DNA of 64,000 nt. It comes from Synechococcales cyanobacterium S06 (GTDB taxonomy: Bacteria; Cyanobacteriota; Cyanobacteriia; Cyanobacteriales; JAABRE01). A program made the translations under genes and the position numbers. The stretch spans positions 3,700 to 67,699 of the forward strand of contig JAABRE010000015.1 of NCBI GenBank assembly GCA_011391125.1. The letters are read 5' to 3'. The notes beneath the pieces are model-generated. The model saw only the letters and a list, made by a program, of their open reading frames with translations, was not told the DNA's origin and searched no databases. Shown here piece by piece: positions 13,290-34,667 of this stretch; the stretch's first letter is position 1, and each line of letters opens with the position of its first letter.

Positions 13290-13293
13290 CGTT

Positions 13294-13488: not shown

Positions 13489-13608
13489 AATGAAAGTAAC
13501 CGAATTGATAATTGATAGTTGATAGTTAATCTATGTTCTCCTGACTGCTTTCTATTATGCAATATTAGAAAAGATTATCTAAAATAAACTTAAATTTAAG
13601 GAGAAATT

Positions 13609-16131: not shown

Positions 16132-16204
16132 GCAAAAATATTTGTCAATTGTCACAATCCTGATCTATCATTGTTTTATAAAGCAAAAAGGAGACTCAAT
16201 CAAG

Positions 16205-16669
16205 ATGAATAGTTGTATTTTAATGGCCAAAATAGTGACTAATCCGGAGTTGCGTTATACCCCAGATCAGTTAGCTTTAGCGAGTATGTTGGTGGAATTT
16301 TCCGGTGTTGGTCCTAATGATCCACCTGGAACGATGAAAGCAGTGGGTTTTGGCAATTTGGCCACAGAAATTCAGCAAAATTACCATGAAGGTGAACAGG
16401 TAATTATTCAAGGCCGATTAAGAATGAATACCATTGATAGACAAGAAGGTTTTAAGGAAAAAAAAGCGGAATTGACCATTTCCCATCTTTATAAAGTTGG
16501 TTCTCTTCATGAAAATTCTCCCTCATCTAATCCCGTGTCTTCGGGAAGTCCGAATAATGTTGTACCAATTAACCGTACAAGTTCACCGTCTTATGGTGAC
16601 AACAATAGTTATGATGATGAATTTCATGAAGAAGGAACTAAGGGTAATTTAGATGATATTCCCTTTTAA
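16205..16669 (+). CDS. ssb: single-stranded DNA-binding protein
   Basis: OB-fold N-terminus MNSCILMAKIVTNPELRYTP, a low-complexity tail and the canonical acidic tip DDIPF. AAGGAG lies upstream of the ATG at 16205. The longer ORF from 15998 overlaps the preceding gene and is rejected. Confidence 0.85.
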   Translation: MNSCILMAKIVTNPELRYTPDQLALASMLVEFSGVGPNDPPGTMKAVGFGNLATEIQQNYHEGEQVIIQGRLRMNTIDRQEGFKEKKAELTISHLYKVGSLHENSPSSNPVSSGSPNNVVPINRTSSPSYGDNNSYDDEFHEEGTKGNLDDIPF

Positions 16670-16704
16670 TATAGGGCATTTTCATTCTCGTTGGTGAAAA
16701 CGGT

Positions 16705-16875
16705 GGGGAATTAGGGTATTGGGGGATTGGGGAACTAAAGTGGGGGTGTTAGGGTTTTGGGGAATTGGGGAGAACTGGAATGAAAGCTAACTCCCGCGCC
16801 TCCCTATTCTTCTAACTCCCTAACTCCCTAACTCCCTAAATCCCTAGAAAAGTAGGGTATTGGGGGATTGGGGAG
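16705..16875. repeat. G-tract block / C-tract block / G-tract block
   Basis: 16705-16770 has nine runs of 3 or more G separated by 2-9 nt (GGGGAATTAGGGTATTGGGGGATTGGGG...). 16791-16846 is its C-rich counterpart, including (TAACTCCC)3. 16852-16875 repeats AGGGTATTGGGGGATTGGGGA. Confidence 0.85.
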
Positions 16876-17022
16876 ATTTTTCACTCTCGGATTTTCAATC
16901 ATAATTAAAAGTCATAAAATTCTCAATTTGTGGCTATAAATTCTCAAAAAAGATTGCTTATTGACTGTTTATCGTTCCTTGTTCAAAATAAAAAATTCAG
17001 AATGAAAACACCAGGCTTTTAA

Positions 17023-17126: not shown

Positions 17127-18626
17127 TTAATTCTCTGGTTTTTTCTCCTCAGAAACTGGAGTTAAATCTGGTTTTTTCTCCTCAGAAACTGGAGTTAAAT
17201 CTGGTTTTTTCTCCTCAGAAACGGTGGAATTAACAGGGTTTAAATCTGGTTTTTTCTCCTCAGAAACGGTGGAATTAACAGGGTTTAAATCTGGTTTTTT
17301 CTCCTCAGAAACGGTGGAATTAACAGGGTTTAAATCTGGTTTTTTCTCCTCAGAAGGTTTAACCGATTGAGGAATATTATCAAGGAGGGGAGGAGTCGTA
17401 TTATTATTAGTTGACTGGGAATGTTTTTGATTAGCAGGTGGTAGTTGTTCAGGACAAATATTCTGATTATAAGCAAAATCAACGGTCACTAAATAGGGTT
17501 TAGGATTATCTTTTTTAAACTCATAAAAAGATATCTCAAATCGGGCATTTTCGTTAAAAATGGGGTATTCTGCACTTTTTATTAATTGTAAACTGGTTGG
17601 TTCACCCTGGCCGTTGACCAATACTCCATAGGTTGTACTACCTTCCAACTTTTGTAAACAAGCATCTTTGGGATACTTCCCTTTCAAGGTTAATTTTTCT
17701 GGTTCAACCTGATTAATCGTAATCAACCAATTGAGATAATTGGTGGTTGCTTCCTTGTCTGAAGTATTATTCGTATTTTTTGCCAATGCAGCGGCTCGTT
17801 GTTGAAGTTCCGTTCGGGCATTTTCCTGAGCCATGGCTAATAAATCCTGTTCCGAAGGGGGATTAATGTCTTGTTTCCCCGTGGGTGGTAAAAGGGGAAA
17901 TTCCCTGACATTAACGGGGTTTGGGGGGATTTCTGGGTCTTTTGGGGGTAATTTGGTTTCGGGATTCGGATTTTGATTAACTGGAGCATTGGAAAATTCC
18001 CTCAAAATATCGTTGGTACTACGAAGGGGAATTGAGTTAAGATCAACATTCATCTCGGTTTCGATTTCCTGTTGAGTTTCTAATTGTCTTTTTAATTCTT
18101 GTAAATCATCTTTCTGTGGTAGCGCTGGACTATTGTCAGATGGTTCATCAAAAGGCGGATTATTCAAAAGAGGAGGGGGAATGGGTACAGTTTTCGCAAC
18201 CGGTAACTCTTTAATCGCAGGAATTTCGGGGATTTCTGAGATTTCTGGTTTTTGATTGGTTTTATCAGCCAAGTCAGGAGGCAAAAATAAGGAAGTCGTG
18301 GGAAGAGGAGGAAGAGGAGTGGGAGTCGCCGGAAAAGGCAAAGCAAGCGCCGTTTCTAAGATGGGTGTGTTAGGGAGAGGTGTATTGGGAAATTCTGGCA
18401 CTTGAGTTGGTTTGGGCGACAAGTCCGGTAACCGTGCGACTTCTGTGTCGTTTAATTGTACAATGGGGACTGGATTTGTTTTAATATTTTTGTTTTCTAC
18501 CGAAAAGAGGGGCAAATTTGGGACAGCAAATAAAGCTCCATGACCAACCAAGGAAGCGATAATTCCTAGAATTGTACTAATAGGAATCTGATTAGAAAAA
18601 GAGGATTTTAAAGATAAATCAGACAT
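17127..18626 (-). CDS. proline-rich membrane-anchored protein, TonB-like architecture, with a tandem-repeat C-terminal tail
   Basis: One N-terminal TM helix, a long Pro-rich spacer, and a globular C-terminal-like region. The extreme C-terminus has three copies of a 15-aa unit and two of an 11-aa unit (SEEKKPDL...). The TonB assignment is architectural only. Confidence 0.6.
   Translation of the reverse strand: MSDLSLKSSFSNQIPISTILGIIASLVGHGALFAVPNLPLFSVENKNIKTNPVPIVQLNDTEVARLPDLSPKPTQVPEFPNTPLPNTPILETALALPFPATPTPLPPLPTTSLFLPPDLADKTNQKPEISEIPEIPAIKELPVAKTVPIPPPLLNNPPFDEPSDNSPALPQKDDLQELKRQLETQQEIETEMNVDLNSIPLRSTNDILREFSNAPVNQNPNPETKLPPKDPEIPPNPVNVREFPLLPPTGKQDINPPSEQDLLAMAQENARTELQQRAAALAKNTNNTSDKEATTNYLNWLITINQVEPEKLTLKGKYPKDACLQKLEGSTTYGVLVNGQGEPTSLQLIKSAEYPIFNENARFEISFYEFKKDNPKPYLVTVDFAYNQNICPEQLPPANQKHSQSTNNNTTPPLLDNIPQSVKPSEEKKPDLNPVNSTVSEEKKPDLNPVNSTVSEEKKPDLNPVNSTVSEEKKPDLTPVSEEKKPDLTPVSEEKKPEN
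17134..17356. repeat. perfect coding tandem repeats (2 x 33 nt, then 3 x 45 nt, plus a partial unit)
   Basis: Direct reading of TCTGGTTTTTTCTCCTCAGAAAC... units. All unit lengths are multiples of 3. Confidence 0.9.
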
Positions 18627-18721
18627 AAGGAATAGTTGATAGTTAACCTAAAATAGTTGATAGTTTTTTATAATTATTAATTATTGATGATCCATGATCA
18701 AGGATAAACTTTATTTTGGAT

Positions 18722-19195
18722 TTATGAGTTACCAGGATTGAGCCAAATCATTTCCCATGTGACATAAGTTCCGATGGGACTCCATAATAGATAGGGTAAC
18801 AGAAATAAGCTGCTCGTCGCCGATTGTTTGAACACCATTATAGCTAAAATTAATCCGAAGATAAATCCTGCTCCGCCGATGATTGTACCAACGGTTAAAC
18901 TACGCATTTTACACATGACGGGAGTATAAGCCAAGATGGCAAATTCAAGTAGTAAATAAAATACCATGAATCGCCAAGTTTCCCACGTATTTGGTTTAAT
19001 TTTCCAGATTAAATAGGCCGAGTATGAACCACAAGTAAAAATGAAGATCCAAATGAAAGGAATTAATATTTCAAATGTTAGCCATTTTGGTCTTTTTAAG
19101 CGAAAAAACCAGTTTCTTTCTTCGGGGGAAAGTCGATTAGTAATAAAGACAATTGAGAAGGAAATTACGAAGATAATTAGCCAAGAAGGTATCAT
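18722..19195 (-). CDS. TspO/MBR (tryptophan-rich sensory protein) family membrane protein
   Basis: 157 aa with five hydrophobic segments. The W..LKRPKW motif and the C-terminal PYLLWSPIGTYVTWEMIWLN resemble TspO. Confidence 0.55.
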   Translation of the reverse strand: MIPSWLIIFVISFSIVFITNRLSPEERNWFFRLKRPKWLTFEILIPFIWIFIFTCGSYSAYLIWKIKPNTWETWRFMVFYLLLEFAILAYTPVMCKMRSLTVGTIIGGAGFIFGLILAIMVFKQSATSSLFLLPYLLWSPIGTYVTWEMIWLNPGNS

Positions 19196-19428: not shown

Positions 19429-20229
19429 ATGACCAATTTAGCCTCCAAACAACCGCAACCTAGTTGGTATGAGCCGATTTTTTCCCCGGAACATGGGGTT
19501 TATGTCATGCTATTGAGCTCTTTTCTCATTGGTGGAGCAGCCGCTCAACACTGGAATTTAAACACAACTTTAGCCCTGGTTGCTGCTTTCGCCGCTTTTC
19601 AAGCTGAACATCCTTTCATTTTGCAAATCAAACAACGTCGCCGTGTTAAACCCCGTTTGCTTTTTTGGGCAGGACTTTATGGTGCGATCGCCTTCGGTAT
19701 TGGTATTTATCTCTACTTAAGCACTCCCGTTTTAATTTGGCTTTATCTCGGTGCTGTTTCCGCTTTGATGGTGGATGCCATTGCTGTATTTTATCGACAA
19801 CAAAGGGCGATCGCTAATGAAATCTTGACATTTGGGGCAGTCTGTTTAGCAACCCCCTTGGCATACGGATCAACAACTGGCGCAATCACCCTGGGGGTAT
19901 TAGCCCTCTGGTTATTCAACACCCTATTTTTTGCCAGTGCGATTTTTCGGGTGAAATTAAGAAAACCAAAAACAAGTTCATGGGGACCAGGATTAATTTA
20001 CCATTTACTTGCCAGCTTAATCATTACAGGATTGTGGGCAACTAGCGGCTTAAGTACAACAACGGCGATCGCCTTTGGGGTAGCATTACTAACATTTGGC
20101 GTAATAAGCTGGCAACTAAAATGGTACAAAAGTACAGAAATCAAACATATTGCCTTAATCGAAACTTTAGTTGCACTGATTTTTTTAGGGATTACCGCAG
20201 TTTCCCTCTTACCAGTGCATCCTCTTTAA
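19429..20229 (+). CDS. YwiC-like polytopic membrane protein
   Basis: 266 aa and multi-TM. The N-terminal SPEHGVYVMLL matches the P-x-HGAW-x-ML signature I recall for YwiC-like proteins. Its stop overlaps the stop of the convergent gene (TTAA, 20226-20229). Confidence 0.55.
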   Translation: MTNLASKQPQPSWYEPIFSPEHGVYVMLLSSFLIGGAAAQHWNLNTTLALVAAFAAFQAEHPFILQIKQRRRVKPRLLFWAGLYGAIAFGIGIYLYLSTPVLIWLYLGAVSALMVDAIAVFYRQQRAIANEILTFGAVCLATPLAYGSTTGAITLGVLALWLFNTLFFASAIFRVKLRKPKTSSWGPGLIYHLLASLIITGLWATSGLSTTTAIAFGVALLTFGVISWQLKWYKSTEIKHIALIETLVALIFLGITAVSLLPVHPL

Positions 20230-20705
20230 CTCAACCCGCCAACCCGAATCCCTGCACCAACAATGACGAATAAAACCGCCAAAGTAGTAACACCGATAAT
20301 ATGGTAGGCGAGGGAATTTAAAGTTTCTTTGGTCAAATTGGGGATAATAAAAAAGCGAGCATGAATCGCCAAAGCAAGAGTAGCCAAAAGCAAACCCAAC
20401 TTAATGGCAATATAAACAGACAAAAAAGACTCAAATTGAAAGAAATTTTGCCACCCCGGAAAATAAATCCAAGTCAAAGAAAGACCAGTGATCACCTGTA
20501 ATAATAAACAAACAAGGCCAAAATTCTCAAAATTTTCCTCAAAATTGTGGATTAAATCAGGGTCACGATTTTTCAAGGCCTTGGGTAGAACTGTTACCGC
20601 AAGGACTAAATGACCACCAGTCCAAACCGTCGCGCCTAAAGTATGTAAAATGATCAAAATTTTAAACAGCATATAAAATCCGATTTTGAAAAAGCTGGTT
20701 ATCAA
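20226..20705 (-). CDS. small 4-TM membrane protein, CopD/HemJ-like
   Basis: The LHTLGATVWTGGHLVL motif in the first helix resembles the CopD-type family. It is the last gene of the co-directional nar array, 46 nt after narG. The true start may be the Met at 20672. Confidence 0.5.
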   Translation of the reverse strand: MITSFFKIGFYMLFKILIILHTLGATVWTGGHLVLAVTVLPKALKNRDPDLIHNFEENFENFGLVCLLLQVITGLSLTWIYFPGWQNFFQFESFLSVYIAIKLGLLLATLALAIHARFFIIPNLTKETLNSLAYHIIGVTTLAVLFVIVGAGIRVGGLS

Positions 20706-20706
20706 T

Positions 20707-20745
20707 GCTTTAGCACTATTTTAAGGCTAAAGCGCAACAACCAAC
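20707..20745. repeat. hairpin-plus-tag short repeat (GCTTTAGC...GCTAAAGC + GCAACAACCAAC)
   Basis: 8-bp inverted repeat (20707-20714 / 20726-20733) followed by the GCGCAAC[A/T]AC tag. Related copies lie at 2606-2632 (inverted), 5083-5117, 28739-28798 and 35121-35141. Confidence 0.7.
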
Positions 20746-20751
20746 AAAGCT

Positions 20752-23700
20752 TTAAAATTGAGGTTTACCCTCTAATTTGCGGACTAAGACAAAGGTATCA
20801 CGATTAACCCCCGTCGGTCCCCAATAATTGAAAGCGTAGGAAAATTGACCATAGCCGCCCATCATCAACACTGGTTTGAGTCGAATTCTGGTTAAACTAT
20901 TGTGCATTCCGCCACGTCGATTATTGCGTAAAGGAGATTTCGGAATACCCAAAGTGCGTTCCATCGCATGGTATAAAATACAGATACTGCGGGGAATGCG
21001 AGCACTGACAACAGCGCGGGTGACGACCACACCATGATCGTTATAGACTTCAACCCAATCATTATCCACAATGCCTAAATCCACAGCATCTTGATCATTC
21101 ATCCACAAAGGATCAATACCCCTAGACAAAGTTTGCATCCGCAAAGTATCGCCATAAGTTGAGTGAATGTGCCACTTGCCATGGGGAGTGAGATAATTCA
21201 TCACCAAAGATTTACCACCTTGATGACTTTCTAATAGATCGGTAGTAATCTGATAGTCAGGTTTGGGTTTATAGGTTGGTAAATTTTCCCCATAAGCGAT
21301 ATAACCTTCATGGTCTAAATAAAGGTGTTGACGGCCAGTTAAGGTGCGCCAAGGAACTAAATATTCCACATTCAAACAAAAAGCAGAATAAGCGCGACCA
21401 TTATTAGTTAAACCGCTCCAACAAGGTGTTGTTAATAAACGACGAGGTTGGGTCACTAAATCATTGAAATTATACCGAATTGCGCGGGTAGCTTCGGCCA
21501 ATTCAGTTAAAGGAAGACCGACCTTTTTTTCCTCCTCTTTAAAAGCACGATAGGCGATTTCCCCATTTGTTTCTGGAGCTAAATGTAAAACCACATTGGC
21601 CGCATCTTTAGCATCCATAAGAGAGGGATATTTCTGATTATTCCAAGTATAAGTTGGGTTATTTTCTACTAACTCTTGATAAAAATCTTCCACCGACCAA
21701 TTTAAACCGTGCATGCCGAGATTTTTGCCATTTTCACCAAAAGCGCAAAAACGATTATAAAGATTAGGATAATCTCTTTCTACTACGACAAAATTAGGCA
21801 TAGTTTTCCCCGGAATGGGATCACATTCTCCCTTACTCCAATCGAGAATATTTCTCTGAGCAATTTCCCCTGGAGTATCGTGTTGTAAAGGAACAGCGAC
21901 GACATCTCGTAATTTTTCTGGTAAATGTTTCTCGGATAATTCAGATACTTTTTTGGACAAAGTTTTGAAAATATCCCAATCACTTTTTGACTCCCAACAA
22001 GGAGGTACAGCAGCACTTAAAGGTTGGATATAGGAGTGCATATCGGTACTATTCAGATCATTTTTTTCGTACCAAGTTGCTGTGGGTAAAACAATGTCAG
22101 AATAGAGGGCAGAAGTATCCATGCGGAAGTTAATATCCACCACCAAATCTAATTTTCCGATGGGTGCATCTTCTCGCCATAAAACCTCATTAATGCCTTC
22201 TCCCGTACCTTCTTTAGCGATAATATTGTTGTGAGTTCCTAAATAGTTTTTCAGGAAATATTCGTGACCTTTTGCACTGGAAGCGAGCGCATTTCCCCGC
22301 CAAATTAAGAGAATTTTCGGTGAATTATTCGGAGCATCTGGGTCTTCGATCGCAAATTTCAAATCACCAGATTGCAAATTTTTCACAATCCAATCTTTAA
22401 TTTCCTGCTCCGTTTTTGCGCCATCAGCTTCCGCTTTTTTAACCACTTCTACGGGGTTATAATTAAAATGAGGGTGGAAAGGAAGCCAACCCATTCTAAC
22501 AGCTTTAACCGCTAAATCGATGGTATGAGTTGCTTTAAGATCGTCTCGATCTACCGTTTCCAATAATGTTTGTTCATATCGCCATTGGCCAGAATGAACA
22601 TAGTGAAAATTAGGGGTATTTTGTAATCTTGGCGGTTTTTGCCAATCCAACGCAAATGCAAGGGTGCTCCAAGAAGAATTCGGCGCTAGTTTTTCTTGAC
22701 CAACATAGTGGTTTAAACCGCCACCATTTTTCCCGACGCAACCACAGAGGATTAAACTGACAATGGGCGCTCGATACATCAAGTTATTGTGATACCAGTG
22801 ATTGATACCCGCACCAATAATGACGCTACATTTACCTTGTGTTGTTTCTGCGGTGTTGGCCCATTCCCGCGCCAATTGCAAGACGGTTTTTCTGTCAATA
22901 CCGGTGAATTTTTCCTGCCAAGCGGGCGTGTAGGCTCTATTTTCATCATCATAATTTTCGGGATATTCGCCCTCCAAACCACGTTTTACCCCAAATTGAG
23001 CCATTAAGAGGTCAAAAACCGTGGTAACAGCGATTTTTCCACTGCTGGTGTCCAAATATTTGATGGGTACACCCCTCTCAGAAACCCGCTCATTGTCGGC
23101 AAAATCCGTGAACCCAACTTGTAAATTTTCGTCAGCGTTGTCTAAAAAGCTTAACACAGGGTCAATGTCACTGTTGTCTAAGCCGTCTTTCATTTCTAAA
23201 TTCCATTGGCCTTTTTCCTCTTGCCAACGGAAACCGATTGTACCTTTCGGCATTTTGGGACTGTTGCTAGTTTTATCAAAAACCAGGAATTTCCAGTCAG
23301 CTTTTTCTACATCCTGATAAGATTGCAACTGACTCGCAGTTAACATTCGTCCGGGGTAGTATTTGCCCTCTTTTTCCTCTAATATTACCAAAAATGGCGA
23401 ATCACTGTATTTTTTGACGTAATTTTGGAAGTATTCGACTTGGCGATCGACATAATATTCCTGCAAAATCACATGGTTGATGGCCATCCACAATGCCCCA
23501 TCTTGACCAGCATTGACGGGAACCCACCAGTCGCCAAAGCGGGAAACTTGGCTAAAATCCGGGGATAAAACCACGAATTTTGAACCGTTATGCCTTGCTT
23601 CGGCGATGAAATGCACGTCAGGTGTGCGGGTCATGTTCAAGTTTGCCCCCATACAGACGATGTATTTGGAGTTGTACCAGTCGGCACTCTCAGCAACGTC

Positions 23701-24357
23701 CGTTTGTTCCCCCCAAACTTCGGGGGAAGCGTTAGGCAAGTCGCTGTACCAGTCATAAAAGCTGAGGTTTACTGCTCCCAATAGTTGCAAAAATCGTGAC
23801 CCAGCAGCATAACTCAACATGGACATGGCGGGAATGGGCGAAAAACCAATGATGCGATCGCCACCTTCTTTTTTGATGGTATGAATCAAGGAAGCGGAAA
23901 TAATCTCCAAAACTTCATCCCAATTACTGCGACGAAAACCACCTTTACCCCGCGCTTGTTGATATTCGCTACGTTTGGCTGGGTTATTCATTAAGGAAGT
24001 CCAAGCTTCGACGGGATCAGCATATTGTCGTTTAGCTTCCCGCCATAAATCGAGCAATTTTCCTCGAATATAGGGATATTTAACCCGTAACGGGCTATAA
24101 AGATACCATGAATAGGATATTCCCCGTTGACAACCCCTTGGCTCATAGGGCGGCAAACCCGCTTCTAAACAGGGATAATCGGTTTTTTGCATTTCCCAAG
24201 TGACAATGCCGTCCTTGACGTAAATTTCCCACGAACAGCCGCCGGTACAATTGACACCGTGGGTACTGCGGACTACTTTGTCATGTTGCCAACGATTGCG
24301 ATAAAATTCTTCCCATTGACGCAATTCGGGGTTTACGATATCTTTGATCCAACTCAT
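20752..24357 (-). CDS. narG: respiratory (membrane-bound type) nitrate reductase alpha subunit
   Basis: 1201 aa. The N-terminal FS0 motif is [11 protein letters not shown] (H-x3-C-x3-C), followed by EPRGCQRG. There is no twin-arginine leader. Length and conserved blocks are typical of NarG. Confidence 0.93.
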
Positions 24358-24477
24358 AATAATTACCTCTTGTTGTGTTCACTTTATTTGACTAATATTT
24401 TTCTGGTAAGATGGGCAAATTTCTTAACATTTATTAGGAGAATAATTGTCTTTGATAATTTACCCATTCTAGTTAAG

Positions 24478-25347
24478 TTAACTTATGTGATAAAGTTTTC
24501 TGACTTCTTCTAAAGAGGATAAATCAGGTAAACTATTCGCAATTTTTTCCAGTAATTCTAAATTTTTAATTTCGCTAATTGCTGGAAATAAAGTTAATCC
24601 ATTTTCTCCAAATTTTAAGCGTAATCCTAACTGGATTGCTAGTAAAAGTCCTTCGGCTTTACCTTCAATTTTGCCTTTTTCTTGTTCACGTTTGGCCATT
24701 TCTTGATACCAAGGAGATTGTTCTAAGATTGCCATATCCCACCTCATAATTTGTTGTACTAATGATGTTTTTAAGACAAAAGATGCGAAAAAAGCTAATA
24801 ATGTTTCTAATTCTTTTAAGTCTTCATCTTGACGTAATTCCGCTAAAGCTTTTCTAACTATTGTTTCTTCGTTTCCTCCTTTTAATATGGGAACAAAGGG
24901 TAATAAAGAGTTAATTTTGTCTCTAAAAACTAGGTTAACATCTACGGACCATAGATTAATAACTCGATAATCTTGATAGGCTTTTATTCCTAATTGATTC
25001 GATTCATAACAAGTCGGAATTACCGTATTATTACTAGGTTGTAAAATATTAACAACTAGGGGATAAACAAAACGTTTGTATTTTTCTTCTGCTAAAGCTG
25101 CGTAGGCTCTAATTCGACGGGGTATTTCTTCATCGTGTCTCAATTGTATTTCATTTAGCAACAAAAATTCGCCGGTTTCTGGAGAGGAAACTCTCATTAA
25201 GACATCCCCTTGACGACTTACCCATTGAAAATCAGAATTTATTATTTCTTGAGCTTTTAAATTGGGAATTTGTGTCACCCATTGTACCCAAGGATCAGGT
25301 GATAAACTGATTAATCTTTTGCTACCAATATCAGCGGTTTTTGCCAT
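24478..25347 (-). CDS. Rpn/YhgA-like PD-(D/E)XK putative transposase-nuclease with a DUF4351-like C-terminus
   Basis: 289 aa. The N-terminal MAKTADIGSKRLISLSPDPWVQWVTQ resembles the multi-copy cyanobacterial Rpn-family proteins. It sits between cytochrome c and narG on the same strand. Confidence 0.6.
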   Translation of the reverse strand: MAKTADIGSKRLISLSPDPWVQWVTQIPNLKAQEIINSDFQWVSRQGDVLMRVSSPETGEFLLLNEIQLRHDEEIPRRIRAYAALAEEKYKRFVYPLVVNILQPSNNTVIPTCYESNQLGIKAYQDYRVINLWSVDVNLVFRDKINSLLPFVPILKGGNEETIVRKALAELRQDEDLKELETLLAFFASFVLKTSLVQQIMRWDMAILEQSPWYQEMAKREQEKGKIEGKAEGLLLAIQLGLRLKFGENGLTLFPAISEIKNLELLEKIANSLPDLSSLEEVRKLYHIS

Positions 25348-25392
25348 ATTTAAGTCTCCTAACTTCCCTTAACTAAGAGAAAAATTAGATAA

Positions 25393-26364
25393 TTAATTTT
25401 CACCTTCCACCATTTTTTGACGTACTCCTGTGAAGCGATCAGCCCATGTCCAATTACTAACAATTAACAGGAATAAACAGCCTCCTAAAGCAATCAAAAC
25501 TAACTTAATTGTTGGGGTTAGGTTGGTTAACAAATTATCGGTTTTTACCGGTTCATTACTAACAGAATCCTGCTGTTTTAAGAAGGCTAAAAGTGCAGTT
25601 TGTTCGTCGTCGGTGAGGGGTTTATTTTGATAAATACCCTGCATACTTGGATAGGGCAAGGTTTTTAAAACACTACCTAATCCCATTTCACCATAACGAC
25701 CGAAAACATGGGTTAAATTTGGTCCTAATGTTCCTCCATTTAATGCGCCAATTCCGGCACTATGACAAGAATTGCAAGCTGGAGCTTTATTAGCAAAACG
25801 GGTTTTACCTAGAAATAAATCTTCCCCCTTTTTTTTTTGAGAATTATTAACCATAGCCACGTTATTTTGGTCAATTTCTGTTGTCTGATTGTCCAGATTA
25901 ACCTGATGGGAGTTATCAATTTGTTGGGCAATATTCTGGTCAGAATTGGCTAAAGCTTGGTCATTATTTCCGGCTAAATAATCGACAATTGCCTGACTTT
26001 GTTCTGTGGTTAAACCCATATTTGGCATCGGTACTCCGTTATATTTGGCCACAATTTCTTGAGCAATTGGATCACCATTTTCGATCATTTTATCCGGTGC
26101 AGCAATCCAGTTTACTAACCAATTTTTTTCCCGTCTTTCTGTGACTCCTTTTAAGTCCGGTGCAAATCCTTTTCCTGTACCATCTAAGGTGTGACAACCT
26201 GCGCAGTTTTGCTCGAATAAGACCTGTCCATTTTCGGCAGCTATTGCTGATGGTATGGGGGTCATTATTAATATTAGTAAACTAATTAGTCCCATTATTA
26301 GTAGTTTACGATTTCTCCCTTGAATTGATTTATTTTTTTTGATTACATTCAGCTTTGATAACAT
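25393..26364 (-). CDS. membrane-anchored dihaem c-type cytochrome
   Basis: Two CxxCH motifs (CAGCH, CNSCH), an N-terminal signal/anchor, a Q/N-rich linker and a C-terminal TM helix. Confidence 0.8.
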   Translation of the reverse strand: MLSKLNVIKKNKSIQGRNRKLLIMGLISLLILIMTPIPSAIAAENGQVLFEQNCAGCHTLDGTGKGFAPDLKGVTERREKNWLVNWIAAPDKMIENGDPIAQEIVAKYNGVPMPNMGLTTEQSQAIVDYLAGNNDQALANSDQNIAQQIDNSHQVNLDNQTTEIDQNNVAMVNNSQKKKGEDLFLGKTRFANKAPACNSCHSAGIGALNGGTLGPNLTHVFGRYGEMGLGSVLKTLPYPSMQGIYQNKPLTDDEQTALLAFLKQQDSVSNEPVKTDNLLTNLTPTIKLVLIALGGCLFLLIVSNWTWADRFTGVRQKMVEGEN

Positions 26365-26427
26365 TACTTTTTCTCCTTTTTTCCTGATTAAAAACTTTTT
26401 TTACCCTCCACAAGAGAGGAAAAAATA

Positions 26428-26766
26428 TTACGACTGAGGATTCTGGTTTTCTTTGTTGAGGACTTCATGAACCCAACTAAAAACAGCAACCGTTGAAGAC
26501 ATACCCAGTGTGCCGGGAGTTAAGGCGATGATTTGTTCGATTTCGGCGGCCGGAATCCCCATGGCCAAAGCTTTGCGGACTCCCGCCGAAATTGCTCCTT
26601 GTTTCATTGCTCCCATGGCGATCGCCAATTTGAGCAATCTTATGGTTTTCTCATCAAAACAGCCTTCTTGCCCAGCTTCGTTAATCAATTCCCAGGCTGT
26701 TTCTAACTTGGGATAACGTTCGACAAATTGTTGATAGGTTTTTGGTGGTTTTGGTAATTCGGTCAT
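26428..26766 (-). CDS. carboxymuconolactone decarboxylase (AhpD-like) family protein
   Basis: 112-aa all-helical small protein with a CMD-like pattern. Recognition by eye only. Confidence 0.6.
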   Translation of the reverse strand: MTELPKPPKTYQQFVERYPKLETAWELINEAGQEGCFDEKTIRLLKLAIAMGAMKQGAISAGVRKALAMGIPAAEIEQIIALTPGTLGMSSTVAVFSWVHEVLNKENQNPQS

Positions 26767-26796
26767 GGCTTTTTTTCAAAATAATTAGATATTGAC

Positions 26797-27987
26797 TTAA
26801 TTCGGATTCTGATTAGGTTTTACGGTGCGTAAAAGTGTCCAATTTAAGACTAACAAACACACTAAACCAAAGAGACTAAAAAGAATAAAAGAAGGAGTAT
26901 AATTGCCAAAATTCTTTTTAACAATTCCTAAGAGAATCGGTGGGAAAAAACCGCCGATTCCCCCTGCTGCTCCGACTAATCCCGTTACAGTTCCCGTATT
27001 TTGGGCAAAATATTGGGGAACTAATTTAAAGACTCCGCCATTTCCTAAACCTAATAAAATGGCACAAGCAAAGCAGCCTAAATTAAATAAAAGTAGGGAT
27101 GGTAAAGCTAATGTCCAACCGAGGATAAAAATGCCTCCAAAAATGAATAATAGTAGTTGTTCTCCACCTATGTGATCACTCAACCAACCGCCAAAGGGAC
27201 GACTTACTGTAGCAATAATGACGAATAAAGCTGTTAAACCTCCTCCTTGGGCGGGATTTAGTTGAAAAATATCGCTATAGAGGCTGGGGAGGGTGATACT
27301 CAAAGCAACAAAACCGCCGAATGTCAGACTATAAAAGAAACTCAGTATCCAAGAGACTTTTTCGGTTTTTAATACTTGCAGATTTTCTTCTAGTGTTCGT
27401 GGTTTGCCTTTTGTTTCAGCATTGCGCGCAAAGAGCCAGAAAACCACTCCCCAAATGAGAGAAATTAGACCAAATACCAGTAAAACTCCTGAAATTCCGA
27501 TGTATTTTGCTAACACTGGTCCGCCAAATACGGCGACGGATTGACCAATATTGCCCATGCCGTAAACTCCTAAAGCTGTTCCTTGAACTTCTGGGGGAAA
27601 CCACTTGGAGACAAAACCGACTCCGATGGCAAAGGATGACCCAGCCAACCCTAGTAAAAAGCCCCAAAAAAGCAGACTAGGATAGCTGTGATTGAGTGAT
27701 AAAGCCACAGTTGGCACGATTGAGAAGGCGAGCAGGAAGGAAAAAATCAGACGGCCACCATAGCGATCAGTTAAAATACCCATGGGGATACGGCCAACAG
27801 AGCCTAAAAGCACGGGAATCGCAATCATAAGGAATTTTTGCGAGTCAGAGAGAGCCAATTCCTTTTTTAAAATGGGTGCTAATCCGGCAATGCTTCCCCA
27901 ACAAGCAAAACCGACGGCAAAAGCAAGGGTTGCTAAGGCCAAATTACGATTTGCTTCTAAATTTTTTCCCTCATTACTGATAGTCAT
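26797..27987 (-). CDS. narK: MFS nitrate/nitrite transporter, NarK/NasA type
   Basis: 396 aa and about 12 TM segments. Gly-rich nitrate-signature-like blocks are present (GFVSKWFP, GAAGGIGGFFPP). The gene lies 11 nt after narI. Confidence 0.85.
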   Translation of the reverse strand: MTISNEGKNLEANRNLALATLAFAVGFACWGSIAGLAPILKKELALSDSQKFLMIAIPVLLGSVGRIPMGILTDRYGGRLIFSFLLAFSIVPTVALSLNHSYPSLLFWGFLLGLAGSSFAIGVGFVSKWFPPEVQGTALGVYGMGNIGQSVAVFGGPVLAKYIGISGVLLVFGLISLIWGVVFWLFARNAETKGKPRTLEENLQVLKTEKVSWILSFFYSLTFGGFVALSITLPSLYSDIFQLNPAQGGGLTALFVIIATVSRPFGGWLSDHIGGEQLLLFIFGGIFILGWTLALPSLLLFNLGCFACAILLGLGNGGVFKLVPQYFAQNTGTVTGLVGAAGGIGGFFPPILLGIVKKNFGNYTPSFILFSLFGLVCLLVLNWTLLRTVKPNQNPN

Positions 27988-27998
27988 AATTCCAATTG

Positions 27999-28700
27999 TT
28001 AACCTTTAATTTGAGAATTTGTTACCGCTCCCACTGACTGATTCCAAACCACAACTTGGGGCGATCTCCAGATATATTGAAGGGGTAAAGAGAGGAAGTG
28101 AACTAAACGAGAGAATGGCAATAAACTAACTAAGAAAAAGGCATCGATAATGTGAATTTTCACCATTAAAGGTAAATTTTCAACCAAGGAAATATTGGGA
28201 TTAAAGCTAAAAATTGACCATAAATAAGGAGCCGCTGCGGCTGCATACCATGATGAACCCCAACGATAGAAAATAGCTGTCCAAATTCCGGCGAATACCT
28301 GCACAAATAAAGCCAATAAAATAACCACATCCATGACAGAAGTTACCGCCCTAATTCTGGGTTGAACTGCCCTTCTGACCATTAACATTATTAAGCCAAA
28401 AATAGTTAAAAATGCTAAGGATAAACCAGTTCCTTCTAAGACATATAATCGCCAAGGAACGCCATTCCAAGCGAGGACAGATTGAGGAATTATTAACCCT
28501 AATAAATGCCCTCCTAATATTAGTATAATTCCATAATGCCATGGTACTGATCCCCAAAATAGTTGTTTATTTTCGAGGAATTGAGATGACAAACTAGAAT
28601 AGGAAAAACGCTTGACAAAATATCTAATTGGTGTCACCACTAAGGCAATAATTATTGTTACATAAGGGAAAACACTAAACATAAATTCATTGCTGGTCAT
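27999..28700 (-). CDS. narI: respiratory nitrate reductase gamma subunit (dihaem b, quinol-oxidising)
   Basis: 233 aa and five TM segments, with conserved His in helices II and V (WHYGIILILGH..., KIHII..., LVHFLSLP). Confidence 0.85.
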   Translation of the reverse strand: MTSNEFMFSVFPYVTIIIALVVTPIRYFVKRFSYSSLSSQFLENKQLFWGSVPWHYGIILILGGHLLGLIIPQSVLAWNGVPWRLYVLEGTGLSLAFLTIFGLIMLMVRRAVQPRIRAVTSVMDVVILLALFVQVFAGIWTAIFYRWGSSWYAAAAAPYLWSIFSFNPNISLVENLPLMVKIHIIDAFFLVSLLPFSRLVHFLSLPLQYIWRSPQVVVWNQSVGAVTNSQIKG

Positions 28701-28738
28701 AATTAATTCTCCTTTTATTATGGGAGTTTGTTGTCGAT

Positions 28739-28798
28739 GCTCTCGCCCTTTTTAAGGGCTAAAGTGCGATTACGGGGAGAGCGCTTTAGCGCAACTAC
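28739..28798. repeat. structured hairpin-plus-tag repeat in the narJ-narI intercistronic gap
   Basis: Outer stem GCTCTC (28739-28744) / GAGAGC (28777-28782), inner stem GCCCTT/AAGGGC, then GCGCTTTAGCGCAACTAC. Confidence 0.7.
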
Positions 28799-28802
28799 AA
28801 AC

Positions 28803-29336
28803 TTAACATTTGAGAGTTTCTTGGGGGATTTCCTGTTTAATTATTAACAATAATCCCTCTAATAATTGTCCATAATTATTAGAATCAGTAAAACCTTCTT
28901 TGATTTTTTCTAAAGTGGGAATTAAACCGTCTATGATTAATTCTTGACCTAAGATTTCTGAGGAATTTAAGGTTGCTAAAAATTCGAGGATAATTGTTAG
29001 ATGATCTGCTAATTCTTTGGAGTCTGAATTAAACCCAGTTTCCACATATTTTGCTTTTAATTTTACTAAGAATTCGCCTCTTTGATAGCCGTCGCCAAAT
29101 AGTTGATAACCGACATAGGGGTAACAAGTGGGATTTAGATCAAAGGTACTGGTATAAATTTCCTCTAGTCTATCTATTGAACTATTTTGATAAAAGTTAA
29201 CGAAGTCATTAATTAAGGGTTCAATTTCTGGATAATTTTCCTTAATTAATTCACTATTCTCCCCACTTTTTAACTTTACTTTTTCGGTGGGATAATTTAA
29301 CCAATCTGACATTATTTGATATACTTTTTGTTTCAT
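28803..29336 (-). CDS. narJ: nitrate reductase molybdenum-cofactor assembly chaperone
   Basis: 177-aa acidic helical protein between narH and narI. The position and size are those of NarJ/TorD-type chaperones. Confidence 0.8.
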   Translation of the reverse strand: MKQKVYQIMSDWLNYPTEKVKLKSGENSELIKENYPEIEPLINDFVNFYQNSSIDRLEEIYTSTFDLNPTCYPYVGYQLFGDGYQRGEFLVKLKAKYVETGFNSDSKELADHLTIILEFLATLNSSEILGQELIIDGLIPTLEKIKEGFTDSNNYGQLLEGLLLIIKQEIPQETLKC

Positions 29337-29375
29337 TTATTTAACCCCTTAATTTCTCTCTAAATTGTCTATTAT

Positions 29376-30872
29376 TTAAAGTCCTCTTTCTGGTTTTTCT
29401 GAAAATCCGACTCCCACTTCTCCTTTATGTTGTTGGGTGTCTTCTAACATGGAAATTGCATATTCCCGATGACTTGGTGGAATAACGAACCTGTCTTCAA
29501 GGGTTGGTAAGGAGGTTAAACGGAAAATCGCGTCGCAGGTTTCTTTCGTCAAGCCTGCTGTGGCGATCGCCTCTTCCACTTTGACTTCATCTAAGTCGCC
29601 CACTTCTTCTAATCGTTTCGATAAACGTACGGAAATCAATTTACGGTAGGTGTCTTTGATTATTTCTTGATTTCCAGCGCTAAACATTTTTGCTAAATAT
29701 TCAACAGGAACTCGCGCTTGTTCTAAACTGGTGAAAAATGTGTCACTGTTGCTTTCATAAGTACCGTTTTCCACTCTTCCTAAAACGGGCAGTAAGGGGG
29801 GAACATAAAATAACATGGGTAAGGTGCGGAATTCCGGATGCAGTGGTAAAGCTAATTTCCACTCTTTGACAAATTTGTAAACAGGCGATTTTTGCGCCGA
29901 TTCGATTACTGAGGCATGGATGCCGTCTTTTTCAGCTTGGGCAATTACTTTTGGGTCAAAGGGATCGAGGATCAATTCTCTCTGTTTTTCCACCAATTCT
30001 GATTCGTCACAGGAGGCAATTTCTTCAATGCGATCGGCATCGTACAGCAACATTCCTAAGTAGCGGATTCTACCAACACAGGAATGGAAACAAGCAGGAG
30101 GTTGACCTGTTTCTAAACGCGGGTAACAAAGAATACATTTTTCCGATTTCCCTGATTTCCAGTTGTAGTAAACTTTTTTATAGGGACAAGCTGTGACGCA
30201 AAAACGCCATCCTCGACACACGTTTTGATTTACTAATACAATGCCGTCTTCTCCCCTTTTATATATTGCACCTGAAGGACAAGAAGCGACGCAACTGGGA
30301 TTGGCGCAATGATTGCATATACGTGGTAAGTAAAAGAAGACTAGGCGATCAATTTCAAATAAGGTTTCTCGATCTTTTTCGCTGATTGCGCCTAAATTCG
30401 GGTCATTACTGGCATAAATGGGTGAGCCGCCTAAATCATCATCCCAATTGGGACCAGCTTTAATATCAATATCATCCCCGGTAATTAAAGAAATGGGTTT
30501 AGCGGTGGGTTGATCATCACCGGCGGGAGCATCAAATAAGTCACTATATTTATAAGTCCACGGTTCGTAATAATCGTCAATGGTGGGTAAATGGGGTTGG
30601 TGGAATAAGTTGGCTATTCCTTTGACCTTATTAGTCGAACGCAATTCGATTTTTTCTTTTTCTTCATCTTTTTTCCAACCACCCTTGTATTTGTCTTGAT
30701 CTTCCCATTTGGTGGGATAACCAGTCCCCGGTTTGGTTTCGACATTATTCCACCACATATATTCTGTACCTTGACGGTCTGTCCAAATGTTCTTACAAGC
30801 GACACTGCAAGTATGACAACCAATGCATTTGTCGAGGTGAAACATCATGGAAACTTGAGCTCTAATATTCAT
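29376..30872 (-). CDS. narH: respiratory nitrate reductase beta subunit (4 Fe-S clusters)
   Basis: 498 aa. Ferredoxin-type Cys groups are CIGCHTCSVACK, CNHCANPSCVASC, CRGWRFCVTACP and CILCYPR. Confidence 0.93.
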   Translation of the reverse strand: MNIRAQVSMMFHLDKCIGCHTCSVACKNIWTDRQGTEYMWWNNVETKPGTGYPTKWEDQDKYKGGWKKDEEKEKIELRSTNKVKGIANLFHQPHLPTIDDYYEPWTYKYSDLFDAPAGDDQPTAKPISLITGDDIDIKAGPNWDDDLGGSPIYASNDPNLGAISEKDRETLFEIDRLVFFYLPRICNHCANPSCVASCPSGAIYKRGEDGIVLVNQNVCRGWRFCVTACPYKKVYYNWKSGKSEKCILCYPRLETGQPPACFHSCVGRIRYLGMLLYDADRIEEIASCDESELVEKQRELILDPFDPKVIAQAEKDGIHASVIESAQKSPVYKFVKEWKLALPLHPEFRTLPMLFYVPPLLPVLGRVENGTYESNSDTFFTSLEQARVPVEYLAKMFSAGNQEIIKDTYRKLISVRLSKRLEEVGDLDEVKVEEAIATAGLTKETCDAIFRLTSLPTLEDRFVIPPSHREYAISMLEDTQQHKGEVGVGFSEKPERGL

Positions 30873-30990
30873 TTTATTTAAGTCCTTGAAGAATCTTAAA
30901 GAGACAATTAATTATGGGGGGACGATTATGTTACATAAATCTCATTAAATTTGAATTTGTTGTTCAAATAAATCGCCTTTTCAGTTTCTA

Positions 30991-31019
30991 TTGTTACAGA
31001 ATCATCATTTAAGAGTCAA
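30991..31019 (-). promoter_or_regulatory. putative sigma70-type promoter of the narH operon (copy A of the duplicated module)
   Basis: The minus strand reads TTGACT (31019-31014), 17 nt, TAACAA (30996-30991), about 110 nt upstream of the narH ATG. It is part of a 56-bp block repeated at 31667-31722. Confidence 0.45.
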
Positions 31020-31285
31020 GAATTCCTCACATATCTTCATATTATGACTTAACATTTCTTAAACAAAACTAATCGCTATTTTACTAGAAATCAATTGAGT
31101 AATTATACTTGAAAAGTAGCTTAAACTTAATCTCTATAAGTATCTGAACTGAAAAATTAGCACGATGTAGAGGCCGATTAGCTAAGTTTTTCTCATCAGG
31201 AAATATTAAAAAAATATTAAATTGACCTAAGCTTTTGTGAAAATCAATTTTAAAAATTTAATAACCTAAATTTAAACTTTTAAGA

Positions 31286-31311
31286 CCTTAGAATTCTCGT
31301 TAATTCTAAGG
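31286..31311 (-). terminator. stem-loop downstream of the small ORF 31349..31627
   Basis: Perfect 10-bp inverted repeat CCTTAGAATT / AATTCTAAGG with a 6-nt loop. The trailing sequence is only moderately U-rich. Confidence 0.4.
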
Positions 31312-31348
31312 CCTTAAATTTGGACTTATCAAAAAGTATTTCATCAAT

Positions 31349-31627
31349 TTATCGAGAAGGAATTACACAAAACTGTTGTACAGGGATAACTTGTTGACCA
31401 CAATCAGGATTCCACACCACCCATTCCGTATCAGAATAGGAACATAATAATAAAACATCCTGCTCAGAGCTAAGTAAATGTACCCAAGTATTATCTAAAG
31501 GAGGTAAAGAAACCACTTCTTGTTGAGCTTTATTAACGGAAATCCAACACCATTGAAGATTATTGACGGAATAGTTATTATTACTTAGATTATTTGAACG
31601 GGGGCGATTTAATAATGCAGTACCCAT
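31349..31627 (-). CDS. hypothetical 92-aa protein
   Basis: The start is chosen at MGTALL (31627) because the promoter-like -10 element lies at 31671-31676, inside the longer ORF-track model. No recognisable domain. Confidence 0.45.
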   Translation of the reverse strand: MGTALLNRPRSNNLSNNNYSVNNLQWCWISVNKAQQEVVSLPPLDNTWVHLLSSEQDVLLLCSYSDTEWVVWNPDCGQQVIPVQQFCVIPSR

Positions 31628-31670
31628 AACACTTCGACTCCTAAAATTTATTTTTTTAATTCTGTATTCA

Positions 31671-31699
31671 TTGTTACAGAATCCTCGATTAATAATCAA
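31671..31699 (-). promoter_or_regulatory. putative sigma70-type promoter (copy B of the duplicated module)
   Basis: The minus strand reads TTGATT (31699-31694), 17 nt, TAACAA (31676-31671). The spacing is the same as in copy A. Confidence 0.45.
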
Positions 31700-31829
31700 G
31701 AAAACTTAACATATTTTTACATAAAAATTTTTTTGAGTCTTATGACGCGTTGCCCAAAGTTGAAAGTTAACAGAATAATGCAAAATAAGTATCTCAAAAA
31801 TGCGTCTATTGCATTAACTGTTAAAAAAT

Positions 31830-31843
31830 GTAACAAAAGATAC
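31830..31843. promoter_or_regulatory. candidate NtcA-binding site (GTA-N8-TAC)
   Basis: GTAACAAAAGATAC matches the canonical palindromic NtcA consensus. It lies in the divergent gap between the small ORF (minus) and narB (plus). No -10 box at the ideal 22-nt spacing was found. Confidence 0.3.
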
Positions 31844-32219
31844 GAAGTTTTGAAGAAATTAATGTGATGCTAAGAATCAAGCAAACCATCTAGCAATCAG
31901 CTAAAGTTTGTTCCCTGTGAATTAGTTATTTAAAATTCAGTAAATGACCATGAAATTAAATCAAAAATTACCCGATATCCAAAGTGGAACTTGTCAAGAT
32001 CATTAACAAATTCCCATAAAAAAGGTTTAATCTGTCTCTAAATTGTCTTTTTATCGTTTGATTATTATTTTCAAAGTCTGCTCTCAAAACAGTAATAAAT
32101 TTTTCATTTGATTTTTGGAACTGATAAATTTTCCCTATTTAAACTTTTTTAACTTTCTGATTTGGCCGTTGTTATCATTTAGCAAAAATAGCCCCTATTA
32201 ATTAATTAATTCAAATATT

Positions 32220-34514: not shown

Positions 34515-34522
34515 TTGTTAAC

Positions 34523-34627
34523 TATAGCACTTGCCAAATTTATGGGGACTCTTTTCCCCCTCTCCCTTTGGGATGAGGGGGGTAGGGGGGTGAGGGGTTG
34601 TATCTCATTTAATCTGAAAATGCTATA
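34523..34627. mobile_element. MITE, TATAGCA-terminus family with a G-rich hairpin core
   Basis: Termini are TATAGCACTTG (34523-) and AAAATGCTATA (-34627). The core is CCCCCTCTCCCTTTGGGATGAGGGGGGTAGGGGGGTGAGGGG. A second copy lies at 59740..59845. Confidence 0.75.
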
Positions 34628-34628
34628 T

Positions 34629-34665
34629 TAACTATCAACTATCAACTATCAACTATCAACTATTA
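34629..34665. repeat. heptamer tandem array (CTATCAA)n
   Basis: 7-nt periodicity. The array ends 2 nt before the ATG at 34668. Confidence 0.85.
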
Positions 34666-34667
34666 AC

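Follow-up and report, generated by a model that had tools for sequence, protein, structure and literature searches.

Within a 64,000-nt stretch of contig JAABRE010000015.1 from Synechococcales cyanobacterium S06 (hereafter, the window), nine genes arranged as a minus-strand array appear to specify a complete, apparently functional respiratory-type nitrate reductase (Nar), beside narB and narM, in a genuine cyanobacterial contig (Table 1). The open reading frame (ORF) map of the 64-kb window reproduced the coordinates and the co-directional layout given in an initial annotation of this DNA, with the nine genes occupying 10.6 kb (20226-30872) and separated, from narH to the CopD-like gene, by gaps of 39, 102, 11, 30, 63, 45, 120, and 46 nt, that is, within the 11-120 nt noted before. 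The CopD-like gene that closes the array and its convergent YwiC-like neighbor were also as described, and their 3' ends overlap by 4 nt. At the other end, narB diverges from narH and starts exactly where it had been placed, 1347 nt away.

Table 1. Features of the nar cluster and its immediate surroundings in the window
Feature	Position	Strand	Basis
YwiC-like membrane protein, 266 aa	19429-20229	+	Pfam YwiC, 109 bits
CopD-like membrane protein	20226-20705	-	Pfam CopD, 35 bits
narG, catalytic subunit with molybdenum-bis(molybdopterin guanine dinucleotide) (Mo-bisMGD), 1201 aa	20752-24357	-	TIGR01580
Rpn-like gene (YhgA/"transposase YdaD"-like), 289 aa, intact	24478-25347	-	Annotated homologs
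narC, membrane-anchored diheme cytochrome c, 323 aa	25393-26364	-	Pair of CxxCH motifs, Thermus homology
CMD-family small protein, 112 aa, without CxxC	26428-26766	-	Sub-threshold Pfam CMD, orthologs
narK-type major facilitator superfamily (MFS) nitrate/nitrite porter, 396 aa	26797-27987	-	MFS_1, alignment of NarK residues
narI, diheme b quinol-oxidizing membrane subunit, 233 aa	27999-28700	-	TIGR00351
narJ, Mo-cofactor insertion chaperone, 177 aa	28803-29336	-	TIGR00684, Pfam Nitrate_red_del
narH, Fe-S subunit, 498 aa, at the head of the permuted cluster	29376-30872	-	TIGR01660
narH/narB divergent spacer	30873-32219		Small ORF, palindrome, repeat
narB and narM, genomic context outside the Nar enzyme	32220-35120	+	Cluster names, TIGR02664

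The catalytic subunit NarG scored 1565 bits on its NCBIfam equivalog model (cut-off, 1084 bits) and 1311 bits against the structures of Escherichia coli NarG. In the ligand alignments, for which E. coli and Thermus subunits were taken from annotated records, the FS0 motif HGVNCTGGC contributed H33, C37, and C41, which together with C76 and D206 correspond to H49, C53, C57, C92, and D222 of the E. coli enzyme (mature-protein numbering); D206 occupies the position of the Mo-ligand Asp, and N36, H520, and R78 are likewise conserved. The residues whose loss the initial annotation had regarded as telling against the enzyme, namely the Mo-ligand Asp and the FS0 ligands, are thus all in place. The length of 1201 residues and the missing Tat leader reported there were also borne out, as no RRxF-type twin-arginine motif was present within the first 60 residues and the N-terminus is shorter than that of E. 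coli. Since NarG bears no Tat signal, its active site is expected to face the cytoplasm, and nitrate would be reduced there. The four Fe-S cysteine groups previously noticed in NarH (669 bits; cut-off, 524) proved to be complete, with all 15 cysteines of FS1-FS4 aligning to E. coli NarH along with W222 of the 3Fe-4S site. NarI (125 bits; cut-off, 105.6) and NarJ, the latter by a narrow margin (64.2 bits; cut-off, 59.35), passed their equivalog cut-offs, as their earlier assignment implied; Pfam agreed with these core assignments, and the heme b ligands H55, H65, H183, and H201 of NarI match E. coli H56, H66, H187, and H205. Taken together, every cofactor ligand of the Nar enzyme is intact. The naming of the MFS protein as NarK held with one reservation: it scored 237 bits on the NarK-family model TIGR00886, under the cut-off of 311.7, but R66 and R263 correspond to R89 and R305 of E. 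coli NarK, and Y219, F223, F27, and F119 match as well, these being the arginine pair and aromatic residues of the substrate site in the NarK structures. Its orthologs, 61-76% identical, occupy the same position in the clusters of cyanobacterial relatives.

The cytochrome c gene had been listed initially as a diheme protein following the nar genes; its two CxxCH motifs (residues 54 and 197) are indeed present, but the protein is better described as a NarC subunit than as a loose accessory. Its sequence is hydrophobic at residues 19-44 and 281-308 and shows an AIA/AE-like cleavage motif, and since a signal peptide and a C-terminal anchor are predicted, NarC would lie on the periplasmic or lumenal side of the membrane. 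By tblastn, it matched the Thermus thermophilus cytochrome encoded directly upstream of narG (28.5% identity, E = 7e-10, 73% of the query), and within a plasmid collection of 7.3 Gb, all matches that spanned both heme domains were this same cytochrome. The two proteins align over their full length, with both CxxCH motifs, GVPMPN, PxPxM, an N-terminus that resembles a signal sequence, and a transmembrane helix at the C-terminus in common; by analogy, the methionines of GVPMPN and PxPxM are candidate axial ligands of the hemes. A NarC homolog was present near narG in 80 of 88 loci carrying this NarG lineage, in hosts from Chloroflexota, Acidobacteriota, Gemmatimonadota, Myxococcota, Planctomycetota, Beggiatoaceae, and Thermus, and a search of the E. 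coli nar locus found none. NarG identity was correspondingly bimodal, at 62-63% to Thermus and at most 50% to the classical proteobacterial and Bacillus enzymes (48% to E. coli). The homology and operon position of NarC, its full-length alignment, and this bimodality are the reasons for assigning the window enzyme, on sequence grounds, to a NarC-type Nar, as in the narCGHJIK cluster of Thermus.

The small gene upstream of narC was less readily named. The initial call of a CMD-family protein fell short in the window itself, where the Pfam CMD match reached 20.9 bits against a cut-off of 23; its orthologs, however, carry an unmarked CMD hit (E at most 1e-5). Those orthologs are 63-78% identical and lie directly upstream of narC in several of the related loci, which we refer to by number (L003, L004, L005, L007, L085, and L093), suggesting that the gene is an accessory mainly of cyanobacterial Nar clusters.

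In Thermus, NarC is a fourth, membrane-anchored periplasmic subunit that NarG needs in order to mature and to attach to the membrane and that has been proposed as an electron route to other acceptors, and the nar cluster there is mobile (PMC7694296). The T. thermophilus narCGHJIK(T) cluster, which specifies a heterotetrameric NarC-NarGHI enzyme, has the same subunits, NarC included, plus NarJ and an MFS porter. It differs in its menaquinone chain, its Nrc NADH dehydrogenase, and its dnrST/drpAB regulators, which have no counterpart in the window, whereas the window belongs to a mesophilic-type cyanobacterial host with a plastoquinone-based membrane and has a permuted gene order, an Rpn-like insert, and additional CMD-family, CopD-like, and YwiC-like genes. 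E. coli NarGHJI (1Q16, 1R27) has the FS0, Mo, FS1-FS4, and heme b ligands and the NarK substrate-site residues in common with the window, and neither enzyme carries a Tat signal; E. coli differs in its NarXL/FNR regulation, its order (narK beside narGHJI), Lys86 at the quinol site, and the lack of a detectable NarC. A third comparison is with the nitrite oxidoreductase (NXR) of Nitrobacter type, which has NarG-, NarH-, and NarI-like subunits and a NarC-like cytochrome gene in its cluster and runs in the opposite direction. Because such a very similar cluster works as an NXR in Nitrobacter (PMC7694296), and because NarC is predicted on the membrane side where cytochrome c6 and plastocyanin reside, the window enzyme might operate in reverse; electrons from nitrite would leave by way of NarI and NarC, be taken up by cytochrome c6 or plastocyanin, and end at photosystem I or an oxidase. 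We give this only a slim chance, since NarG clears the cut-off of the narG equivalog and is most closely related to proteins of anaerobe-rich lineages that are annotated as nitrate reductases, and both the NarK-type porter and the nitric oxide (NO)-stress context described below suit nitrate reduction. A combined mode, in which the enzyme would feed photosystem I as an NXR in the light (nitrite-driven anoxygenic photosynthesis) and act as a plastoquinol:nitrate reductase in the dark, is similarly a long shot.

The gene order of the window is narH-narJ-narI-narK-CMD-narC-(Rpn-like)-narG, whereas the Microseira/Phormidium subclade keeps the canonical CMD-narC-narG-narH-narJ-narI-narK. In every closer relative, with NarG 83-94% identical, the genes run narH-narJ-narI-narK-(variable gene)-CMD-narC-narG; the window-type order is a circular permutation of narCGHJIK common to the closest relatives. 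The gene at the narK/CMD joint is Sua5 in L085, DUF438-hemerythrin in L093, and absent in the window. This variability fits what we infer to be the simplest route to the permutation, in which the operon was duplicated in tandem and the outer halves were then lost. The window and L093 are collinear from narK to a point 6 nt beyond the narG stop codon, and the flanks of the nar cluster vary among the relatives examined. Directly downstream of narG in L082 lies a Type ISP restriction-modification gene (13922-16960); such a gene also occurs in the window, at 52636-55812, 28 kb from the nar cluster.

The Rpn-like gene between narC and narG lies on their strand and separates two genes that adjoin each other in most relatives examined, the interval being about 1 kb in the window, 2-28 nt in L085 and the canonical-order loci, and 161 nt in L082. 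Its designation as an Rpn-like nuclease found partial support: no Pfam or NCBIfam model matched even at E = 10, but homologs 53-55% identical on plasmids of Aphanizomenonaceae and Acaryochloris are annotated as Rpn family nuclease/putative transposase. The representative of its 90%-identity cluster is named "predicted transposase YdaD," and a D...E-x-Q motif can be recognized by eye; a comparison with the PDB gave no meaningful match. Homologs in the plasmid collection were exclusively cyanobacterial. The gene is missing between narC and narG in L082 and L085, and it stands at the identical site in L093-L096, where it is broken into 91 + 202 aa. An insertion peculiar to the window was ruled out by these same-site copies, and the gene is a resident common to the nearest relatives rather than the sign of a recent arrival. 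Its borders showed only weak inverted repeats (21 nt, 76% complementary), with no clear terminal repeats or target duplication.

Such an insertion raises the alternative that the cluster is non-functional here, the Rpn-like gene having broken the coupling of narG to narC and narHJI, with decay of the genes under way. The split narC-narG junction, which is tight in L085 and the canonical-order loci, the inversion of ywiC relative to copD, and the decay documented in Limnospira and L001 (see below) would agree with it. We nonetheless regard it as unlikely, considering that all ORFs are intact and all ligands kept, that the Rpn-like gene shares the strand of narG, and that the interval from 24357 to 25393 showed no terminator-like site (a general scan for promoters and terminators returned counts no higher than in shuffled sequence). 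The insertion is also older than the split from L093, and since then, narG has accumulated a synonymous divergence (dS) of 0.49 at a ratio of nonsynonymous to synonymous substitution (dN/dS) of 0.068. Compared with L085 and L082, all nar genes gave dN/dS values of 0.03-0.29, and with the L093 comparison included, the ratios are put at 0.03-0.25 at dS of 0.5-2.3; single values were 0.029 for narH (against L085), 0.05-0.07 for narG, 0.08 for the CMD gene, and 0.20 for narJ. These ratios place all of the nar genes under purifying selection, which the Rpn-like insertion did not bring to an end.

The two genes at the narG end of the array connect the cluster to a different set of cyanobacterial genes. 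Many cyanobacteria have the CopD-like protein at 78-86% identity, annotated with a length of 148 aa; its start in the window is probably the ATG at 20672, which gives the same length. A co-directional copD-ywiC pair, with a gap of approximately 35-50 nt, occurs in Leptolyngbya PCC 7376, Pseudanabaena PCC 6802, and Fischerella thermalis. In the latter two, it ends a norB-glbN-(ric) cluster; loci L091 and L092 show the pair linked to norB-glbN-(ric). The window proteins are 82% (CopD-like) and 61% (YwiC-like) identical to the Pseudanabaena PCC 6802 pair, which is thus common to the window and this module; in the window, however, the two genes are convergent, and the pair adjoins the 3' end of narG rather than norB-glbN. 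Because the pair is co-directional in the three other cyanobacteria examined, the convergent overlap would imply a local inversion of ywiC in this genome. The same genes recur around other Nar clusters: a copD-like gene stands at the end of those in L005, L007, and L066, and the arrangements read norB-glbN-ric-CMD-narC-narGHJI-...-narM-copD in L005, glbN-CMD-narC... in L003, ric-CMD-narC... in L004, and norB-ric-narHJIK-...-narG in L085. The CopD-like and YwiC-like genes are a conserved pair in cyanobacteria and parts of a norB-glbN-ric (NO-stress) module that houses the Nar clusters of other cyanobacteria. Nar makes some NO from nitrite, and a link to NO-stress genes makes physiological sense, as the enzyme would yield nitrite. 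In other cyanobacteria, norB, glbN, ric, and the copD-like and ywiC-like genes are conserved companions of Nar, and this module may accordingly deal with the by-products nitrite and NO. On the far side of ywiC, the window contains a gene for a TspO-like tryptophan-rich sensory protein (18722-19195) that was found beside the nar cluster in no relative.

The surroundings of the cluster are cyanobacterial, with cphA (cyanophycin synthetase), DUF3747/SLH, DUF4359, narB-narM, glpX (class II fructose-bisphosphatase), and hemA as flanking genes. A flanking UPF0182 protein has exclusively cyanobacterial named homologs, and since the nearest of these is only 64% identical, compared with 73-88% for metagenome proteins, the source lineage is poorly sampled. 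The comparison of composition proposed in the initial annotation left the island indistinguishable from its flanks: GC content at third codon positions (GC3) was 0.36 against 0.31, within the host range of 0.19-0.46, and relative synonymous codon usage (RSCU) correlated at r = 0.98. A reading of recent horizontal transfer from composition was ruled out by this match. The same data bear on whether the nar genes might be foreign to the cyanobacterium altogether, through a chimeric assembly or a binning error, a concern that arises because the window lies within one 71-kb contig and the source genome is outside the scanned species representatives. Cyanobacterial genes on both sides within that single contig, codon usage equal to that of the flanks, the cyanobacterium-specific copD-ywiC pair and Rpn-like gene in or beside the cluster, and the occurrence of the same enzyme in a complete Phormidium chromosome and two Microseira assemblies that are not metagenome-assembled genomes (MAGs) make a chimeric contig very unlikely, to the point of being negligible.

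The initial annotation had considered NarGHI non-standard in cyanobacteria, and the distribution agrees with this view. Genomes were scanned for NarG with query-derived peptide patterns, of which the best 80 of 405 matches were used, so that the scan was not exhaustive. The same enzyme was present in at least four named cyanobacteria, namely Microseira wollei NIES-4236, Microseira sp. BLCC-F43, Phormidium sp. R1S1, and Oscillatoriaceae Prado104, and among the matches listed, many metagenome contigs also carry this NarG type. The Phormidium carrier is a complete chromosome, both Microseira carriers are non-MAG strain assemblies, and Oscillatoriaceae Prado104 is a MAG. NarG and NarH of these clusters are 72-78% identical to those of the window and belong to the same NarG clade. 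The clusters, known from annotation only, carry, where present, CMD, narC, narK, and copD-like genes in canonical order; in several, norB, glbN, or ric stands immediately upstream or a narM paralog is enclosed. No narG was found on cyanobacterial plasmids in the plasmid collection. A literature search over 8 million full texts found no study of NarGHI in cyanobacteria, which is annotated automatically in public records; several apparent matches were "nargab" journal DOIs or concerned heterotrophic community members and were rejected, and the one pertinent item was a table entry on the Limnospira fragments described below. The possibility raised in the initial annotation that the cluster is common and already characterized in the phylum is thus at odds with its rarity in the scan and with this search. 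Hence, the NarC-type Nar is rare in cyanobacteria, and it is not unique to this genome.

Some of the other copies are incomplete. Limnospira indica PCC 8005 has narG and narH fragments a few genes from norB-glbN, and its narG fragment was induced approximately 10-fold by gamma irradiation (PMC8400943); these fragments fit a decayed copy of the same module. In L001 (MAG "binchicken_co135_64," 52% GC, canonical order), narG contains an in-frame TAG at codon 349 (approximately 11045-11047), which is either a pseudogene mark or a sequencing error. The M. wollei NIES-4236 locus (L066, 7670-13603) reads narGHJI-narK-narM-copD, with no narC or CMD gene upstream of narG, where an animal-heme-peroxidase gene occupies the site on the opposite strand.

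The NarG phylogeny that had been proposed as a check was calculated by neighbor joining for 99 sequences (100 bootstraps) and for 43 sequences (200 bootstraps), with no NxrA reference included. Eighteen NarG sequences formed one cyanobacterial-type clade with 99-100% bootstrap support, nested among non-cyanobacterial NarC-type enzymes that include those of Chloroflexota and Desulfuromonadales; its sister group, among Anaerolineae and Desulfuromonadales, received at most 52%. The 99-sequence tree divided the clade into two cyanobacterial subclades (100% each), and L001, added in the 43-sequence tree, branched basal to the canonical-order group. The GC content of the nar loci ranges from 35 to 52%, and the genes look ameliorated in different hosts. 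The horizontal acquisition suggested at the outset therefore retains support from the nested position of the clade, but the transfer was not recent, as the codon usage matches that of the host. Host-matching codon usage, the wide GC range, and the single clade all point to a single, old acquisition in which the phylum received the genes from a NarC-type lineage outside the cyanobacteria; vertical descent, losses, and perhaps transfers between cyanobacteria would have come after.

The neighborhood of narB bears on a different role for the enzyme. The NarB cluster mates are named ferredoxin-nitrate reductase (the gene spans 32220-34514), and NarM, encoded next, scored 172 bits on its model. The adjacency of narB and nar appears to be specific to this genome. 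Elsewhere, a narM paralog lies within the Nar cluster with no narB nearby (L001, 19538-19981; L005, 15903-16346; L066, 18067-18510); it is 54% identical to the NarB-linked NarM of the window, and NarM-like proteins may also serve NarG. The narH/narB spacer contains an NtcA-type palindrome, TTCTGTA-N8-TACAGAA (core TGTA-N8-TACA, 31663-31678), and a related direct repeat, GATTCTGTAACAAT, at about 30990-31010, approximately 120 nt upstream of narH. A regulatory role for them can only be inferred: NtcA-type palindromes in the window numbered 2 against 0.88 expected, not above chance; FNR-type sites in the window were not above chance either; and the regions upstream of narH did not align between relatives, the window spacer not being conserved in L082 or L085. 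A small ORF in this spacer (31349-31699) could not be annotated and had no homolog in related loci except in an identical Logan contig (L081). Just downstream of it, on the narH side, lies a hairpin (31279-31318) with a 17-bp stem (TTTAAGGCCTTAGAATT...AATTCTAAGGTCTTAAA). An Rfam scan found no riboswitch, the Moco riboswitch included, and returned only a tRNA-His.

Among potential regulators, L085 has genes for a GerE-type response regulator and a HisKA_3 histidine kinase (13261-15336; NarL/NarX-like architecture) just downstream of narG, with no counterpart adjoining the nar cluster of the window. With 47 bits against a cut-off of 245, the CRP-family gene at 48133-48888 in the window does not qualify as NtcA. 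At 60054-62160, a LysR-family regulator gene, which might be the nitrite-responsive NtcB, is followed by one for a TrpD-like protein (PRK07394, 505 bits). Elsewhere in the window (46193-46855), a stand-alone RRXRR + HNH endonuclease gene stands beside a 139-aa ORF without a family match. In Phormidium sp. R1S1 (L003), a gene for an HPP-family membrane protein follows narK (18386-18967), and an ammonium-transporter gene lies approximately 4 kb further on; HPP is presumably a nitrite-transporter family in cyanobacteria and chloroplasts.

These surroundings would suit an enzyme engaged in nitrate assimilation or redox balance, which would feed NirA with cytoplasmic nitrite in the dark, at times when NarB runs short of reduced ferredoxin, much as the NarGHI of Mycobacterium tuberculosis supplies assimilatory nitrite. 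The distance of only 1.3 kb to narB-narM, the narM paralogs within three other Nar clusters, the HPP-family and ammonium-transporter genes of Phormidium, the NtcA-type palindrome, and the lack of a downstream dissimilatory reductase gene in the window favor such a role. However, the narB adjacency is confined to this genome while the flanks vary among relatives, whose conserved neighbors are NO-stress genes and not assimilation genes, and NarGHI generates proton-motive force however the nitrite is used, so that one role does not exclude the other. We consider assimilation or redox balance, in place of energy-conserving respiration, a possible though doubtful function.

On balance, we lean toward the reading that the locus encodes an intact NarC-type membrane-bound Nar, obtained by one old acquisition, that would drive nitrate reduction with plastoquinol in the dark or under anoxia. 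NarI would oxidize plastoquinol and release protons on the positive side of the membrane, and the electrons would pass through the two hemes b, the four Fe-S clusters, and FS0 to Mo-bisMGD, where nitrate would be converted to nitrite; NarK would bring nitrate in and carry nitrite out. Nitrate could thus act as an electron acceptor at times of darkness or anoxia, when NarB would lack reduced ferredoxin and the oxidases would lack O2, and the plastoquinone pool would stay oxidized while proton-motive force is made. Either dark or anoxic respiration or a valve for electrons from plastoquinone, as the initial annotation had envisaged, is plausible from the gene content. The cluster would have entered cyanobacteria once, then been permuted in this sub-lineage, and later gained the Rpn-like gene. 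Plastoquinol is the presumed donor because it is close to ubiquinol in potential and because cyanobacteria are not known to contain a free menaquinone pool, which leaves plastoquinol as the sole abundant membrane quinol pool.

Several observations weigh against this interpretation. The choice of plastoquinol is inferential, and at the quinol site, NarI has R84 in place of E. coli K86, although an arginine is also found there in Thermus. The window contains no gene for a nitrite, NO, or nitrous oxide (N2O) reductase, and NorB, GlbN, and ScdA gave no tblastn match within its 64 kb. The Rpn-like gene between narC and narG could disturb stoichiometric expression, and the clusters have decayed elsewhere (the Limnospira fragments, the L001 narG stop, and the M. 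wollei locus without narC). The searched literature held no expression or activity data for any cyanobacterial carrier, and the trees were built by neighbor joining only. 

In textbook accounts, nitrate is a nutrient of cyanobacteria that is reduced by the ferredoxin-dependent NarB; as far as we know, these accounts of cyanobacterial bioenergetics include no anaerobic respiratory chain and ascribe dark-anoxic survival to fermentation. The enzyme type itself is already familiar from Thermus, and the NarC-type Nar, portrayed as peculiar to that genus, is the common form in many phyla; a respiratory Nar maintained by selection in oxygenic phototrophs would nevertheless surprise specialists. As the two non-MAG Microseira strain assemblies carry the cluster, the proposal is directly testable. 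If it is true, mat- and benthos-type cyanobacteria would possess an anaerobic electron acceptor and a means of oxidizing plastoquinone at night, and such cyanobacteria would contribute directly to nitrite, and possibly N2O, in mats and blooms.

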